Of a stretch of DNA of 64,000 bases, positions 28,931-60,056 are shown one piece after another. The stretch is taken from NCBI RefSeq assembly GCF_055900595.2, contig NZ_CM148325.1, one strand, 5' to 3'. Below the pieces are notes generated by a model. That model saw only the letters and a list, made by a program, of their open reading frames with translations, was not told the DNA's origin and searched no databases. Positions within the stretch are counted from its first letter, which is position 1. Each line of letters begins with the position of its first letter. The position numbers and the translations under genes were made by a program.

Positions 28931-29691
28931 TTCAGCAGACGACGCGCCGCTTCCACCACGATTTTCACCGCATGGCTTTCGGTTTGTTTCATCGTCTCAG
29001 CATTCGGGATCTCTTGTTGGGTACGATTGACGATAACGCCCGCCACCATACCGGCACGAAGGCCCTGGCTTGCACACATGGTCAGCAGGGTTGCAGATTC
29101 CATTTCATAGTTCATTACGCCCATCGCCTGCCACTCTTCCATAGAACCTTTAAAGTGACGAACTACGCGACCAGAGTAAGTATCGTAACGTTCCTGACCT
29201 GGGTAGAAGGTATCAGAAGAAGCCGTCACGCCAACGTGAGTCGTCGCGCCGATGGATTTCGCAGCCTCAACCAGCGCGGTCGTACATTCGAAATCAGCGA
29301 CAGCCGGGAATTCCAGCGGTGCGAAGTGCAGGCTCGCGCCATCCAGACGAACAGACGCCGTGGTAACCAGGACATCGCCAACATTAATATGCGGCTGAAT
29401 AGCGCCCGTTGTACCGATACGCAGGAAGGTGCGAATGCCCAGCTGTGCCAGCTCTTCAACTGCAATAGAGGTAGACGGGCCGCCGATACCGGTAGAGCAG
29501 ACGATAACAGGTTTACCATCCAGCTCTGCACGCCAGGTGGTGAATTCGCGGTGAGATGCCAGCTTAACCGGCTTATCCATCAGCGCGGCGATCTTTTCCA
29601 CACGATCCGGGTCGCCAGGGACGATGGCAAGCGTAGCCCCTTGTAAATCGTTTTTAGTGAGGCCGAGATGAAAAACATCAGACTTGGACAT
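28927..29691 (-). CDS. udp: uridine phosphorylase
   Basis: 253 aa from [31 protein letters not shown]…; the ORF-track first codon is a TTG two codons upstream. Confidence 0.92.
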
Positions 29692-29952
29692 ATACAACTC
29701 CTCTGTGAATCGGTTTAGTCAGAAGAAGCAAAAAGACACTTTACCGAAGGGTTTAACATTTTTTCGTGACACTCATCACCTTGATGCAAATGCGTTGCAT
29801 AAATTTACCCAGCAAAAGTGATGCGAATCACATAAATCACTCTTCATTCTGCATGACTGCATAAAAGATGAGCCGATTCAGGCAATGTGATTTGTTGCAT
29901 GCTGACTATAGTTAACATTGCGCAACATTTTTATAAGGGTACGGAGAATACC

Positions 29953-41772: not shown

Positions 41773-41823
41773 TAACGTAAAAGCAGGTAAACTGCTTTTA
41801 CCAATAAAAAATGAGTTTTGCCA

Positions 41824-42714
41824 ATGGACACCAAACAAACGCGGCAGGGCGTATTACTCGCTCTTGCCGCTTATTTTATTTGGGGTATTGCGCCAGCGTA
41901 CTTCAAGCTGATTTACTACGTGCCCGCCGATGAGATCCTGACGCATCGCGTGATCTGGTCGTTTTTCTTTATGGTGGTGCTGATGAGCATCTGCCGCCAG
42001 TGGTCTTATTTAAAAACGCTGATTCAGACGCCACAGAAAATTTTTATGCTGGCCGTCTCTGCCGTACTGATTGGCGGCAACTGGCTACTGTTTATCTGGG
42101 CGGTGAACAATCACCATATGCTGGAAGCGAGCCTCGGTTATTTTATTAACCCACTGGTGAATATAGTGCTGGGAATGATTTTCCTCGGCGAGCGATTCCG
42201 CCGGATGCAATGGCTGGCGGTGATTCTGGCGATATGTGGTGTGTTGGTTCAGTTGTGGACTTTTGGTTCACTGCCGATTATCGCGCTGGGGCTGGCGTTT
42301 AGTTTTGCCTTCTACGGCCTGGTACGCAAGAAGATTGCTGTTGAAGCGCAAACCGGCATGTTAATCGAAACTATGTGGCTGCTGCCCGTGGCGGCGATTT
42401 ACCTGTTTGCTATTGCCGACAGCTCAACCAGCCATCTGGGGCAAAACCCGATGTCGCTGAATTTACTGCTGATCGCCGCCGGTATTGTCACTACCGTACC
42501 GCTGTTGTGTTTTACTGCGGCTGCGACACGCCTGCGTCTCTCAACGTTAGGCTTTTTTCAGTATATTGGCCCGACGCTGATGTTCCTGCTGGCTGTGACG
42601 TTTTATGGTGAAAAACCGGGTGCCGATAAGATGGTGACCTTCGCCTTTATTTGGGTGGCGCTGGCAATTTTTGTGATGGATGCGATTTATACGCAGCGTA
42701 GAACGTCCAAATAA
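41824..42714 (+). CDS. rarD: DMT-superfamily permease RarD
   Basis: 296 aa from MDTKQTRQGVLLALAAYFIWG…; the ORF-track start at 41818 is a TTG two codons upstream. Confidence 0.9.
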   Translation: MDTKQTRQGVLLALAAYFIWGIAPAYFKLIYYVPADEILTHRVIWSFFFMVVLMSICRQWSYLKTLIQTPQKIFMLAVSAVLIGGNWLLFIWAVNNHHMLEASLGYFINPLVNIVLGMIFLGERFRRMQWLAVILAICGVLVQLWTFGSLPIIALGLAFSFAFYGLVRKKIAVEAQTGMLIETMWLLPVAAIYLFAIADSSTSHLGQNPMSLNLLLIAAGIVTTVPLLCFTAAATRLRLSTLGFFQYIGPTLMFLLAVTFYGEKPGADKMVTFAFIWVALAIFVMDAIYTQRRTSK

Positions 42715-52816: not shown

Positions 52817-52970
52817 CCTGTTTACCTCTTTCTCAGGGAGTTTAGTCTCCAGGATTTCCGGGGCGGTTCAGTCTGAAAAATGAGGAATTGCTGCGAGTAT
52901 AACGCTTACACGTGGGGATTTATGTTTTGCTGGTAGTTTCGTGATCGGCACCTCGCGCCAGGATGGCTTT

Positions 52971-54449
52971 ATGCACTATCGCAATGTGGTTTGTTTGTTG
53001 TCTTGTTCGTTATTCTTATCCCCGGCATGGGGATGTCGGCTTTCCGCGCCTGAACATAATATTTACCAGAAACAGGGAAAAGGCGTGGTGTACCTGCGCC
53101 CTTATAAAGAAACAAATCTTTCTCTACCTGACGTGAATTACAAGAGTTTGCGTCGTTTACCTAATTTATTAATAGACGCAACAACACAAGATGAATGGAA
53201 TAAAGAACCACCTCTGACTGATCTAACAACTGACAACCTCTATGAGGGCGCACAAGCCTGGTATCCCCATTACTCCTGGCATAGCGATGGTCGCTATATC
53301 CTCTACGCGGGTGAAGTAGTGCAAAATCCTCACGACGCACCACCCGTCGATATCGCCTCATTCAAGGCATGGGGAGATTTTGCCGCGGATAAACACAGTC
53401 TCTATTTTGAAGGCAAGCGCACCGATAACAATGGCGGGGGAAATAGCTTAGATATCAAAACACTGCATCAGGTGGAATTCCGGCCTCCCTGGGATCCTGA
53501 CTTACTGGGGCTGATATTACGTGACGCTAATTTCTTGTATATCAATGGGCATCGCCTCGCAGATCCCGATAGTTTCCGTGTGCTGGCACAAAAGTCATGG
53601 GATCAGCGAGGAAAGTTTTCTACCGCGTTTAATCCCTGTGTGGCTATGCCATTTGGCCCCTGGGATACCCTGGCTCGTACACGGACCAAAATCCTGATCA
53701 ACGGCGAACAGCTTGATGCCGACCCGGACACCTTTTCCGTCGTGCGCTGGATGCCCGGCTCACTCTTGACCTGGCGTGATAAAAACGGGCTACAGCGTAA
53801 AGTCCTCGACAAGGAAAATCTGGCGTGGGATGAAGATTTAACAAAGCACTGTCTGGATTTTTCTCTGCTGGAAAAGAAAGTGTTCTGGCGTAAAGGGCCT
53901 GCTTGTAAACAGGAAGAATTACCGGGGCTCGATCCTGAACAGTTCCACCCCATCAGTGATGCTGTCGCCCAGTATCAGGATTCGCTTTATACCATCATCG
54001 AAACAGAGTCTGGTGACCGCAAGCTGGAGATCGTAAAACTTGATGATCCCAATCTTATTATCAACAAACGTTTCAACGCCGGGAAACGCCATGGCTATTT
54101 ACTTACGCGTGCCGAAGGGTGGCCAAACCATTCCGGTTTACACGTGTTTGAATCTGACGGACCGCTGATCTTACTGGATAACCACTCTCCGGATGAACGC
54201 GAAGCCCATCTTGATGACCATCCCTTTTTGCGCAGATGGTATGCCCGCGATAACCGCTACGTTTACAGCTTTGATGGCGCGCAGCTCTGGCGATACCGCA
54301 CTGCGGATCCGAAACAAGTTCGCTTAATCTGGAAGGAACAACATTCGGGATATGGCTACGGGGTAAATTACAAAACGGGATATCTGGACGGAAAAATTAC
54401 CGATGACGGCGAATTTATTCCTGCCCCGCGCAATGAGGCGACAAAATGA
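52971..54449 (+). CDS. secreted repeat protein, DKNYY-like, paralog 1
   Basis: About 492 aa from ATG 52971 (MHYRNVVCLLSCSLFLSPAWGC…); an in-frame GTG at 52941 is an alternative start; repeated D-x-x-x-LY-x-x-G blocks (DKHSLYFEGKRT, DANFLYINGHRLADPDSF, GEQLDADPDTFSVV, DNRYVYSFDG). Confidence 0.7.
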   Translation: MHYRNVVCLLSCSLFLSPAWGCRLSAPEHNIYQKQGKGVVYLRPYKETNLSLPDVNYKSLRRLPNLLIDATTQDEWNKEPPLTDLTTDNLYEGAQAWYPHYSWHSDGRYILYAGEVVQNPHDAPPVDIASFKAWGDFAADKHSLYFEGKRTDNNGGGNSLDIKTLHQVEFRPPWDPDLLGLILRDANFLYINGHRLADPDSFRVLAQKSWDQRGKFSTAFNPCVAMPFGPWDTLARTRTKILINGEQLDADPDTFSVVRWMPGSLLTWRDKNGLQRKVLDKENLAWDEDLTKHCLDFSLLEKKVFWRKGPACKQEELPGLDPEQFHPISDAVAQYQDSLYTIIETESGDRKLEIVKLDDPNLIINKRFNAGKRHGYLLTRAEGWPNHSGLHVFESDGPLILLDNHSPDEREAHLDDHPFLRRWYARDNRYVYSFDGAQLWRYRTADPKQVRLIWKEQHSGYGYGVNYKTGYLDGKITDDGEFIPAPRNEATK

Positions 54450-55774
54450 AAGGTCAAATAATCACTGTTGCACTCATCCTGTTGGGGCACATATTTCTGA
54501 CGCCTGCTGTACAGGCCATAGGGTTCGACTATTACAATGATCACGGTGTTATGTCTTACGGTAAAGGTTATGGGGAGGATGAGAAAATCATTGCCCAATT
54601 TCCGAAGATGAACAGAGCCGATTTACGCCTTGTGACAAATATATCCAGGGAGCGGGAGTTGGTGGAAGGCTATATACCCACCGATGAAATAAGCATAAAA
54701 AATGAGGAATACCACTGGGTGACAGACGGCCGCGTTATTCTCTGGCGTGGCAAAATCGTTAGCAATCCACCGGGAACACCCACTGTCGATATTGCCAGCT
54801 TTCAGGCTATGGGCCGCTTCGCGGTCGATAAATATAGCCTCTATTTTGACGGACAGCGCACCGAAAGTAATAGCGGCGCGTCACGTGTTGATCTGGCGAC
54901 ACTAAAAGCTATCGAAGGTAACTCTACCACGCTGGTGGATAGTAAAAATCTCTATTTGTCCGGTCGACGTCAGGGGAGCAGCAGTAATGTTACTGTATTA
55001 GAAAAAAGATGGTGGGGTATTAATCCACGTCTTATGAGTGTAAACAGAAATTTGTATTCCAATGATCTGCTTATCCGCAGTGGGCAGAATATTTATTTAA
55101 ATGGCGTTCACCTTACGGCGAATGCAGACTCATTTGAGATAATTCGCTGGATACCTCATTCACTGCTGGTTTTTCGCGACAATAAGGGTATGCATCGTTA
55201 TCCCTTTGGGCAATTGTCTGGCAAAGCGATACCCGTAGATGATGACGTCTCTTTTGAAGTAGGGGAAAGTCGCGTTCGCTGGCGTAAACAGCTCACGTCC
55301 GACCGTCAGTGGAGCCAGTGGATAGACCTACCAGGTATTGAACCTGAACAATTTCATCTGATTACTGACAATATTGCGCAGTATAAAGATCGGCTGTATG
55401 TAACAAAATTATCGACTTTTGGTGAAGACCAGCTTGAAATAATCCCGCTGGATTTGCCAGACCTGGTCATTGATCACTCATTTAATCGCGGCAAACAGCA
55501 TGCTTACTTTATCCACCAATTACGGTCACGCAAGAGCGTGCAAATTATTCCAGTTAACGGCCCGCTAACTAAAAACGATCGCTTTGCTTATGACGATCGC
55601 AATGTTTATACATGGACCGATACAGAGGTAAGGATTACACCCTCCCCCTGCCCAGCGAAAACATACGTCAGAGAAAAGAATGTCCGTGAAATTCATAATA
55701 GCGACATTATTATTCCGGTGACGGAGGAATCGTGCCGGAACGCAGCAGCAGACGGGCAAACTTTGAAGCCCTGA
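54446..55774 (+). CDS. secreted repeat protein, DKNYY-like, paralog 2
   Basis: 442 aa; signal peptide MKGQIITVALILLGHIFLTPAVQA; start overlaps upstream stop (ATGA); collinear with paralog 1 (PTVDIASFQAMGRFAVDKYSLYFDGQRT vs PPVDIASFKAWGDFAADKHSLYFEGKRT; PEQFHLITDNIAQYKDRLY vs PEQFHPISDAVAQYQDSLY). Confidence 0.7.
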   Translation: MKGQIITVALILLGHIFLTPAVQAIGFDYYNDHGVMSYGKGYGEDEKIIAQFPKMNRADLRLVTNISRERELVEGYIPTDEISIKNEEYHWVTDGRVILWRGKIVSNPPGTPTVDIASFQAMGRFAVDKYSLYFDGQRTESNSGASRVDLATLKAIEGNSTTLVDSKNLYLSGRRQGSSSNVTVLEKRWWGINPRLMSVNRNLYSNDLLIRSGQNIYLNGVHLTANADSFEIIRWIPHSLLVFRDNKGMHRYPFGQLSGKAIPVDDDVSFEVGESRVRWRKQLTSDRQWSQWIDLPGIEPEQFHLITDNIAQYKDRLYVTKLSTFGEDQLEIIPLDLPDLVIDHSFNRGKQHAYFIHQLRSRKSVQIIPVNGPLTKNDRFAYDDRNVYTWTDTEVRITPSPCPAKTYVREKNVREIHNSDIIIPVTEESCRNAAADGQTLKP

Positions 55775-55821
55775 CACCATGCCGCTATACTGCCGCCATC
55801 ACCTAAAAACAGGAAACAACA

Positions 55822-56181: not shown

Positions 56182-58728
56182 TCACGAAAAATACTGCTGT
56201 AATAGCGGCGTGTCGTGATCCTGATTGGCAGGCGGCATGTTGCCGATAGATTTGGTGCGGAACGGAATCACCTGTTCACGACCATCAACCTTCACAATTT
56301 GATAGAACTGCGGCAGGTTGAAGTTGATGAAGCTTGAGCCGTAGGTGAAACGGTCGTGCGAAGACGAGTAGAAGCGACTGACGTCACGCACCAGTTCCTC
56401 TTTGCTGCCTTCGCAGTGGTGATACACCTCAACCCGGTTGCTTTCGTCGAGAATGTAGATATTAAAGCCATTCTCGTCTTGCGTTTCTTCGAAGAAGAAC
56501 TGGATGATCCCTTCGCTGGCAAAGCCGTCCACCACCGCCGGTAATTTGACGTGATTGGTTTCAACCTGCACTGACAGGCCGTGCAGTTTGTTATGCGAAA
56601 TAGCGCCATAAAACTCGATGGCATTTTCCAGTTTCTGTACCGATACATTCAGGCGTTCGAAGAATAAGCCCCAAGTTTGACCAGAAACGCGCAGCGCCTT
56701 GAAGCGCCCGGTTTCCTGGCGGGTGCTGGAAAGACGCAGTTCAATGCACTCAGAAACCAGTTGCTGCACGCGAGTACGGATTAAGCCGCGCAGATGCTGG
56801 CTGTAGCAGAAGACTTCCACGCTATCTGGCGGTGCGGCGTCCTGATGCATTTTGCCGAGAATGGTTTTCAGGGCTTCGATCATCGACTGCTCGCCGTTGA
56901 AGTGCAGCGTACGCACTTCGTTCCACGAGTTGCGGTACAGCAGGTCAACGCTACCTACCAGGCAATTTTGGTTTTCGCCAAAGCTGAAGACGTCCAGCTT
57001 ACGGAAATCAAAATGCACCACCTGATTGCGGAACGCAGCTGTCGGGTCATATTCCAGGTTAACGATAATCGCCAGATGGCGAATTTCACACGGGCTGTAG
57101 AGCGCTTTTGGCGTCGGTGCAGGCAGGCGCAGCGGGAAATGGTGCGACACATCGGCGACCATCTCCTGCAACTTAGGCAAATCGACAATGCCGTTGCCTT
57201 TAATATACAAGCGGGTGCGCGAGGTCAGCAGGCCGTTAAACCATGCCCACGCCACCAGTTTATTCAGGTAACGGTTATATTCCAGCGGCTGATGGCTGAT
57301 GATCGACTCAATATTTGGCGCGCGGTTATACAGATACCAACCTGAACGGTTAGCCCGGCCCGGCGGCACATAAATAAAGGTCAGATTCGGTTCCGAGAGA
57401 TCGGGCGAAATCTGCGGGTTTACCAGCGTCACTTTACCTGGCAATGCTTCAAACGCGGCGTACAGTTTACGCGTCAGAACACCGATATCCTGTGGGCTGG
57501 CGGAGACGCTAAGGTTATTGCGACGCGCAAAGCGGATCAGATTACGGTAGCTCTGCATCATTGCATCGAGCAGCTCGTTGTGCGCCTCACGCACCTGATC
57601 AATCTTCCAGTTAGCGCGGTTATCGAGCATTGCAAGACGACCATCGTCCCATTCCCACTCTTTCACTAACTGGGTTAGCACTTCACGACGCCAGCCTACA
57701 CAGGCGCGTTCACGGCTGAGTTTTTCGCACACTTTTAAATAGAAGCAGCGACGCACTAAATCCAGACGGGTGAAATCTTCAATCGCCGTCAGGTATTCAG
57801 TAACACGCTCCAGCATCATGCAGTACGGATCGAGACCAAACGATACAATCTCGCCGTCGTGCAAACGCTGTTTGATATCTTTCGCCAGCAGACGTGGGTT
57901 CGGGTATTCCCAGGAATAGGCTTCCAGCAGCAGTGTTTTCAGTACCGCTTTGTATGGGGAATCGATACTCTTGTAGAGCTGCCAAAGGCTGGCACCAAAG
58001 TACTCTTCAGCAGAAAGCGAGCTTAAGCCACCGAGATCCAGCCATTCATTTGGCGTCAGCACGCCCTGCGCGTAAAGCGTCATCACATAGTCATCGTAAT
58101 GCTCTTCTTCGTCACACGGCACCATATTCCACAGAATACGCTTACCGGCGAGACGCACGGCGGTACGATAAAATTCGTCAAGCAGCAGTATATGCTGGGT
58201 GGAGCCACAATCTTCGCCCCCCAGGCTGCCGCTTTCATTATGACGGAAGCGATTTTCATCAATCAGGAAGAAGCTAACTTCCACGCCCAGCGAGGCGGCC
58301 CAGCTTTCCAGCAGGCTGCATTTACGTTGTAGTAACTGGCGCTCTTCGCTATCAAGCCAGGATTGATGACAGACCCAGATATCCAGGTCAGAGGAACAAC
58401 TTTGCCCTACGGACGAGGTGCTGCCCATGGTGTATACACCAGTAATTGGAAGCTCACCTTTCGGCGGATCCTGTACTGACATTCCACGATACAGTTCAAG
58501 CTCGTTCAGGTAGTGGCGTTGAGTTTCATCAGGCGTGTAAAGGCAAATGCCTTTGGGAACGTTACCATCAAGGTAACCCGGCATTAGCGGATGGTGATAG
58601 TGCAACAATGTCGGCAGTAGACTGTAGACCTGTTGGAATGCAGGCCCCATAGCAGCAAGCGCGCGATCCACGCGCAATTGATTTATGGCATCCAGTCTCT
58701 GTTTCAGAGTCTCAATATAGAGGTACAA
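56182..58728 (-). CDS. cyaA: adenylate cyclase (class I)
   Basis: 848 aa starting [33 protein letters not shown]…; the initiation codon read on the minus strand is TTG (58726-58728). Confidence 0.95.
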
Positions 58729-59114
58729 GACGTATCGCCTGATTTGCTACCCGTCATGACTGTGATTCCGCCAACATCAACGGTAACACGCGGCATTCGG
58801 GATATTTCGTATGTCAAAGGTAACCGTTACCACTTTTCGCGCCTGGTTTTTTTAGTTTCACGACGAAAAAATGGTCTAAAACGTGATCAATTTAACACCT
58901 TGCTGATTGACCGTAAAGAAAGATGCGCTACATACAAGTGTAGCACCGTTTATTCTCTGTAAATTCCTTATTACGACGGCGTGAAACGCCTGTCAGGATC
59001 CACTGCCAGACCTCATTTTACGGTTTGCGCAGGCGTCTACGTTTCACCACAACACTGACATCGCTCTGGCAAGGATGTTAGGATGGACCACGGATGATAA
59101 TGACGGTAACAAGC

Positions 59115-60056
59115 ATGTTAGACAATGTTTTAAGAATTGCCACACGCCAAAGCCCACTTGCACTCTGGCAGGCACACTATGTCAAAGACAAGTTAATGGC
59201 GAGCCATCCGGGTCTGGTCGTTGAACTGGTACCGATGGTGACGCGCGGCGATGTGATTCTTGATACGCCGCTGGCGAAAGTAGGCGGAAAAGGTTTATTT
59301 GTTAAAGAGCTGGAAGTCGCGCTCCTGGAGAATCGCGCCGATATCGCCGTACATTCAATGAAAGATGTGCCGGTTGAATTCCCGCAAGGTCTGGGGCTGG
59401 TCACCATTTGCGAGCGTGAAGATCCTCGCGATGCCTTTGTGTCCAATAACTATGACAGTCTGGATGCGTTACCTGCAGGCAGTATCGTCGGGACGTCCAG
59501 TTTACGTCGCCAGTGCCAACTGGCTGAACGCCGCCCGGATCTGATTATCCGCTCCCTGCGCGGCAACGTCGGCACTCGCCTGAGCAAACTGGATAACGGC
59601 GAATACGATGCCATCATTCTTGCCGTAGCCGGACTAAAACGTTTAGGTCTGGAGTCACGCATTCGCGCCGCGTTGCCACCCGAGATTTCTCTTCCGGCGG
59701 TAGGACAAGGTGCGGTCGGTATTGAATGCCGCCTTAATGATACTCGCACTCGCGAGCTGCTTGCCGCGCTGAATCACCACGAAACTGCACTGCGTGTTAC
59801 CGCAGAACGCGCCATGAATACCCGTCTCGAAGGCGGATGTCAGGTGCCAATTGGTAGCTACGCCGAGCTTATTGATGGCGAAATCTGGCTGCGTGCGCTG
59901 GTCGGCGCGCCGGACGGTTCGCAGATTATTCGCGGTGAACGCCGCGGTGCGCCGCAAGATGCCGAACAAATGGGGATTTCGCTGGCAGAAGAGCTACTGA
60001 ATAACGGCGCGCGCGAGATCCTTGCTGAAGTCTATAACGGAGACGCCCCGGCATGA
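59115..60056 (+). CDS. hemC: porphobilinogen deaminase (hydroxymethylbilane synthase)
   Basis: 313 aa from [27 protein letters not shown]…; the ORF-track start at 59094 is a seven-codon extension. Confidence 0.95.

Follow-up and report, generated by a model that had tools for sequence, protein, structure and literature searches.

The cyaA gene, which encodes adenylate cyclase, is read from the minus strand of the stretch of DNA analysed here (the window; 64,000 nucleotides of contig NZ_CM148325.1, assembly GCF_055900595.2), and its frame opens with TTG rather than ATG. This raises two questions: is that codon the true start of translation, and, if it is, why has so poor a start been kept? We began from a reading made from the sequence only, which had stated that the 848-codon CyaA frame opens with TTG. 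Direct reading of the minus strand at positions 58728..58726 indeed gives TTG, and the ORF list agrees, placing the coding sequence (848 codons plus stop) at 56182..58728 on the minus strand with TTG as its first codon. The codons that follow (TAC CTC TAT ATT GAG ACT CTG AAA CAG) give the N-terminal sequence (M)YLYIETLKQ. Upstream, the frame is closed by an in-frame TAG (58747..58749, minus strand) that lies 7 codons before the TTG, at −21, and the codons between the two (CAA ATC AGG CGA TAC GTC) include no in-frame ATG, GTG or TTG. The next in-frame canonical starts inside the gene are a TTG at codon 18, a GTG at codon 20 and an ATG at codon 27. The better ATG that could have displaced the TTG is therefore absent from its neighborhood, the frame being shut upstream and codon 27 being the first ATG downstream. 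In the E. coli frame, no canonical start other than the TTG is able to encode the conserved CyaA N-terminus.

That the TTG is the first start codon after a stop is insignificant on its own, because the same mechanical rule yields false TTG starts in this very window. The TTG listed for udp at 29697 lies two codons upstream of the annotated ATG at 29691, and the TTG listed for rarD at 41818 lies two codons upstream of the annotated ATG at 41824. For hemC, the listed ATG at 59094 over-extends the gene, standing 7 codons upstream of the annotated ATG at 59115. These annotated starts were placed on the window by sequence anchoring, using strain Z0117EC0005. (That strain differs from the window by indels outside the cyaA region.) The sequence-only reading had cautioned that listed TTG and GTG starts need to be checked singly, and the false starts of udp and rarD, each with its annotated ATG two codons downstream, bear this caution out. 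For annotation, the practical point is that the mechanical ORF start was correct for cyaA and wrong for udp, rarD and hemC within one window. Because the first-start-after-stop rule is unreliable here, the cyaA TTG needed independent support, and what makes it real is its annotation, its conservation and the coding signature of the codons that follow it.

Annotated cyaA entries begin at this codon. The gene of E. coli K-12 MG1655 (b3806 / NP_418250.1, 3991153..3993699) starts at the same TTG, and the window is identical to K-12 across the 101 nt compared around the start. The RefSeq coding sequence WP_000281697.1, taken from a strain with 100% identical DNA, also has a start that maps to window position 58728. 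We find no material difference from K-12 cyaA, which is the same gene with the same codon and the same annotated start. When complete E. coli genomes were searched, the 701 nt around the start were found in 5425 of 5426, under a feature annotated cyaA. Gene order agrees as well: hemC lies divergently upstream and cyaY downstream, and the order hemCDXY / cyaA / cyaY is found in both the annotated identical strain and K-12. Farther afield, hemC also adjoins cyaA in Photobacterium, Vibrio-like and Aeromonas loci. Elsewhere the window strain does differ from K-12, for example in a variable segment with a DKNYY gene between cyaY and lptM.

The encoded protein has the domain architecture of a class I adenylate cyclase. 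Pfam PF12633 (Adenyl_cycl_N) matches residues 5-200 at profile positions 2-198 (E = 1.2e-82), and PF01295 (Adenylate_cycl class-I) matches residues 228-825 (E = 2.3e-258). The NCBIfam equivalog NF006977 covers the protein from end to end (1-848 of 848), with a score of 2047.4 bits (cut-off 1761). Every class I adenylate cyclase feature that lends itself to testing is present. Judging by the 100% identical N-terminal region, and by the equivalog that links it to the characterised enzyme of E. coli, this CyaA would be expected to make cAMP from ATP. The N-terminal Pfam domain begins at residue 5 (profile position 2), and initiation at codon 18, 20 or 27 would thus truncate a conserved domain.

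Comparison with other species supplied the coding signature. We aligned codons 2-17 with three loci from Enterobacterales outside the Enterobacteriaceae (L083, L091 and L084; 71-80% protein identity) and counted 25 synonymous-only codon changes and a single amino-acid change relative to E. coli. This excess of synonymous change indicates that codons 2-17 are translated, and initiation solely at codon 18, 20 or 27 is thereby excluded. The start codon itself has been retained across the family and beyond it. TTG occupies the homologous position in 78 of the 78 Enterobacteriaceae species that had enough upstream sequence, and also in 6 of 6 loci at greater distance but with at least 47% identity, namely the same three Enterobacterales loci together with Photobacterium sanctipauli, a Vibrio-like contig and Aeromonas veronii. 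In-frame stops are found upstream at −18 in L083 and L091, at −12 in the Vibrio-like locus and at −18 in Aeromonas (the E. coli TAG being at −21), and TTG is the sole canonical start that they all share where the conserved peptide begins. Homologs with no more than 43% identity (L088, the Pseudomonas-like L089 and L090 from Thiohalobacter) use ATG, so UUG is not intrinsic to the enzyme family.

These comparisons also bear on whether selection acts on the codon or only on the presence of a start. In all 84 loci with a non-ATG start the codon is TTG and never GTG. Four-fold degenerate sites are invariant at only 3 of 60 positions in the same Enterobacteriaceae set, and about a third of such sites are identical to the distant loci. 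With so few invariant four-fold sites, a freely varying first base would not have remained T, given that A, G and T all make starts. Among complete E. coli genomes, the 65 nt initiation region (−28 to +37) is 100% identical in 5418 of 5425. The single variant genome inspected differs at −25 only and keeps TTG as the annotated start, and queries in which the start had been changed to ATG or GTG found no E. coli genome at 99% identity or above among the 5425. As a rule, UUG starts tend to give way to AUG or GUG (PMC5622118), and that cyaA has kept its UUG against this trend speaks for selection acting on the weak codon as such. We conclude that selection keeps the TTG codon, beyond merely keeping some start at this position. 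The cyaA UUG had already been listed as phylogenetically conserved across Enterobacterales and other gammaproteobacteria (PMC5499595); what we add is a count of its strictness at the scale of a population and across families, and the accepted picture is unchanged by it.

The ribosome-binding site is weak too. The only Shine-Dalgarno (SD)-like sequence upstream of the TTG, AGGCGA (58735..58740, minus strand), whose AGG core is 9 nt before the TTG and which is near-invariant in 78 species, forms a predicted duplex of −2.9 kcal/mol with the 3' tail of 16S rRNA, a value equalled or bettered at 36% of random window positions. The corresponding duplexes of udp (−8.6 kcal/mol), hemD (−6.6 kcal/mol) and recQ (−5.7 kcal/mol) are all stronger. 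SD energy does not separate the TTG from codon 18 or codon 27 (−3.1 kcal/mol each); SD strength is therefore no evidence for one start over another and is merely consistent with a weak site, as the literature would lead one to expect. Folding of the region from −60 to +60 brought out no structure (z = −0.45), and Rfam returned no family match at the cyaA start, even at E ≤ 1.

Of the three canonical start codons of E. coli, UUG is the weakest. The CAU anticodon of initiator fMet-tRNA pairs with it despite a mismatch at the first position, and the N-terminal residue is therefore Met. A start poorer than AUG, combined with a minimal SD (AGG, 9 nt upstream), would hold translation of cyaA mRNA low, and low translation would in turn limit adenylate cyclase and cAMP production. 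The two weak signals together may be viewed as a throttle on the translation of a signalling enzyme that is harmful in excess. On the evidence of sequence, annotation and conservation, we have very little doubt that the TTG at 58726..58728 (minus strand), decoded as fMet, is the genuine start codon of cyaA, the gene for E. coli class I adenylate cyclase, and that this account of low translation holds with it. Both the TTG start and its reading as a weak signal have been known since the 1980s, and UUG initiation of K-12 cyaA was reportedly described by Roy et al. 1983, Aiba et al. 1984 and Reddy, Peterkofsky and McKenney 1985. The locus restates a textbook case, in which a rare start codon and a weak ribosome-binding site hold a potentially toxic signalling enzyme low.

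Published mutagenesis of this codon is in keeping with the throttle. As PMC5499595 gives the results of Reddy et al. 1985, expression from UUG, GUG and AUG at the cyaA start stood at 1:2:6, and the lacZ fusion version of the swaps gave 1:2:3. The sequence-only reading had linked the TTG to the known inefficient UUG initiation of E. coli adenylate cyclase, and both the annotation and this part of PMC5499595 agree with that link. We infer that low expression is the selected trait.

In infC, an IF3 autoregulatory loop has been shown to act on the rare start codon. To our knowledge no such feedback loop exists for cyaA, and, in contrast to infC, the simplest reading of cyaA is a constitutive throttle. 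In other respects the genes are alike: the AUU of infC, the UUG of spoT and the GUG of hupB and of tufA/fus, non-AUG starts through which expression is set or regulated, are, like the UUG of cyaA, rare starts that are phylogenetically conserved at a particular gene (PMC5499595). The same end is reached by other means in Pseudomonas putida, where, according to PMC11139211 (citing Arce-Rodriguez 2021), CyaA is kept low through a poor SD. Adenylate cyclase is thus held scarce at translation initiation in both species, but the throttle in P. putida is the SD and not the start codon, and the Pseudomonas-like homolog in our set has ATG.

We next considered readings that compete with, or add to, a constitutive throttle. 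The one that survives best holds that the UUG is a regulatory device rather than a mere throttle, with a distinct response to IF3/IF2, ppGpp, cold and nutrition, such that CyaA synthesis would be comparatively spared in starvation. In vitro, initiation at UUG was the least sensitive to ppGpp and cold, and the authors of that work tie this insensitivity to the conservation of UUG at cyaA and spoT (PMC5499595). The use of TTG specifically, and not GTG, in every non-ATG locus points in the same direction. However, the in vitro data come from a model infA-type mRNA and not from cyaA (PMC5499595), and a plain throttle accounts equally for the keeping of the weakest canonical start. The ATG of the Pseudomonas-like and Thiohalobacter genes, and the reliance of P. 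putida on a poor SD to limit CyaA (PMC11139211), also tell against it. Initiation that is robust to starvation or ppGpp is a non-exclusive alternative to the throttle, and we regard it as rather unlikely.

A second possibility arises from constraint on the coding side of the start. In the alignment of 78 species, codons 2-14 (58687..58725, minus strand) have unusually conserved synonymous sites: their third positions average a major-allele frequency of 0.949, and none of the 174 other 13-codon windows (codons 15-200) exceeds 0.873. Such constraint near the 5' end is common among coding regions. Folding energy offers no explanation in this case, as 64% of 1000 synonymous recodings are folded no more strongly than the native sequence. 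The constraint could stem from an influence of codon context on UUG initiation, or else from pairing with a regulator. Like the count of TTG strictness, it is an observation added here that leaves the accepted picture as it was.

Directly upstream, the alignment contains a conserved initiation block from −18 to −1 (58729..58746, minus strand), which reads aAcATCAGGCGATAyGTC in relatives and is one base short in E. coli. The columns of this block have a major-allele frequency near 0.97, apart from −4 (C/T, about 0.5), and conservation stops abruptly upstream of −18. We rejected the idea that the block is exceptional, as the initiation region of hemC is equally conserved (mean major-allele frequency 0.963 vs 0.942, same species). 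Taken together with codons 2-14, the block makes up a constrained region from −18 to +42 that might bind an undescribed trans-acting factor regulating the translation of cyaA in Enterobacteriaceae. By analogy, one candidate could be a base-pairing sRNA, since the Qrr1-4 sRNAs pair with the cyaA mRNA of Vibrio cholerae (PMC9732341). If a regulator of this kind exists, the UUG would be one part of a regulated initiation region and not a fixed throttle. We consider this improbable, and more so than a response to starvation.

The leader also contains a short reading frame that might interfere with the start. A 17-codon uORF, which runs out of frame from an ATG at 58757..58755 to a TGA at 58706..58704 (58704..58757, minus strand), overlaps the TTG. 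It could in principle govern initiation there, its ribosomes either occluding the TTG or delivering ribosomes to it. The uORF spans the TTG, and its ATG has an SD-like duplex of −4.8 kcal/mol, somewhat better than that of the TTG. In addition, 37 of 79 sequences, from many other genera, have an out-of-frame ATG at −5 (reading gatATGtc) that uses the same AGG. Against such a role, 32 of the 79 sequences have no ATG in that frame, Citrobacter and Salmonella have the same ATG in frame at −30 through a 1-nt indel, the surrounding leader is unconserved, and our search found no published evidence for it. The out-of-frame ATG is lineage-specific, and we rejected a conserved regulatory uORF on that ground. 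The overlap with the cyaA TTG is probably incidental, and control of the TTG by the uORF seems to us very unlikely.

Least tenable is the reading that the TTG is an artefact of the first-start-after-stop rule and that the true start lies downstream, at the TTG of codon 18, the GTG of codon 20 or the ATG of codon 27: the rule does misplace udp, rarD and hemC, the SD-like pairing before codons 18 and 27 matches that before codon 1, and the codon 27 ATG is found in 79 of 79 sequences, but codons 2-17 evolve as coding sequence, the Pfam and NCBIfam models cover the protein from residues 1-5 on, the codon 18 and codon 20 starts are missing in many species (18 of the 79 sequences have the codon 27 ATG only), the curated K-12 annotation takes the TTG, and expression shifts with mutation of this start codon (PMC5499595), so that this reading is already largely refuted and has next to no chance of being correct.

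In the hemC-cyaA intergenic alignment, a block of about 80 nt (58865..58945, minus strand) is at least 95% conserved in 75 species, and the leader between it and the initiation region (58860..58747) is not. The block contains an inverted repeat, the promoter-like hexamers TTTACG/TTAAAT and a CRP-like site, TGTTAAATTGATCACG (58897..58882, minus strand), which has 2 mismatches to the consensus. A scan of the whole window with the CRP consensus gave 16 matches where 25 were expected, and the CRP-like site is not significant alone. The conserved block is presumably the cya P2 promoter with its CRP operator, as reportedly described by Aiba 1985 and Roy 1983.

The start of an open reading frame listed by a mechanical rule, as the first start codon after a stop, was compared with the annotated start for other genes in the window. 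For udp (29691..29697, minus strand) and rarD (41818..41824, plus strand), the listed TTG lies two codons 5' of the annotated ATG, at 29691 and 41824, respectively. These two TTG codons are artefacts of the first-start rule, unlike the TTG of cyaA. The same comparison yielded annotated non-ATG starts for recQ (GTG 40139), bioP (GTG 34927) and ysgD (TTG 44777). The mechanical rule also over-extends the divergent neighbor hemC at its 5' end (59094..59117), giving a frame of 320 aa (59094..60056, plus strand). RefSeq and K-12 annotation place the hemC start at ATG 59115, for a product of 313 aa, and this codon is found in 75 of 75 species, preceded by an invariant sequence from –13 to –1 (ATGACGGTAACAAGC ATG).

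Automated calling can also hide a UUG start, as exemplified by L084, the cyaA locus of an Enterobacterales relative outside the Enterobacteriaceae. On this single metagenomic contig, the gene caller places the cyaA start at a GTG 11 codons 5' (L084 218..250), but the conserved TTG is still there at the homologous position, as is the ATCAGGCGA element.

Synonymous sites in cyaA codons 2–14 (58687..58725, minus strand) are near-invariant across 78 Enterobacteriaceae species, and their conservation exceeds that of every other 13-codon window up to codon 200. This synonymous conservation in codons 2–14 is not accounted for by predicted folding. The cyaA TTG is also spanned by an out-of-frame upstream ORF of 17 codons on the minus strand, which runs from ATG 58757 to TGA 58706..58704. 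A 1-nt indel brings this ATG into frame, at –30 relative to the TTG, in both Citrobacter and Salmonella. An out-of-frame ATG at –5 is often found instead in Klebsiella, Enterobacter and allied genera (37 of 79 sequences). In the collection of 5426 complete E. coli genomes, a single one is without any cyaA 5' region, and one match to this region falls on a plasmid record.

Between hemC and cyaA, a block of about 80 nt (58865..58945, minus strand) shows conservation of at least 95% across 75 species, and the leader 3' of it (58860..58747) is without conservation in the same set. The block has TTTACG/TTAAAT hexamers, a CRP-like site (58897..58882) and an inverted repeat (58946..58925), and presumably corresponds to the P2 promoter of cya with its CRP operator.

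On the other side of cyaA, two overlapping plus-strand genes for DKNYY family proteins lie between cyaY and lptM (~52870..55800). The first starts at a GTG near 52941 and the second occupies 54446..55774. This segment is highly variable: among 5425 E. coli genomes, no more than 1394 cover 80% or more of it, and identity reaches at least 99% in only 10. K-12 derivatives match about 9% of the segment, and K-12 carries yzcX at this position.
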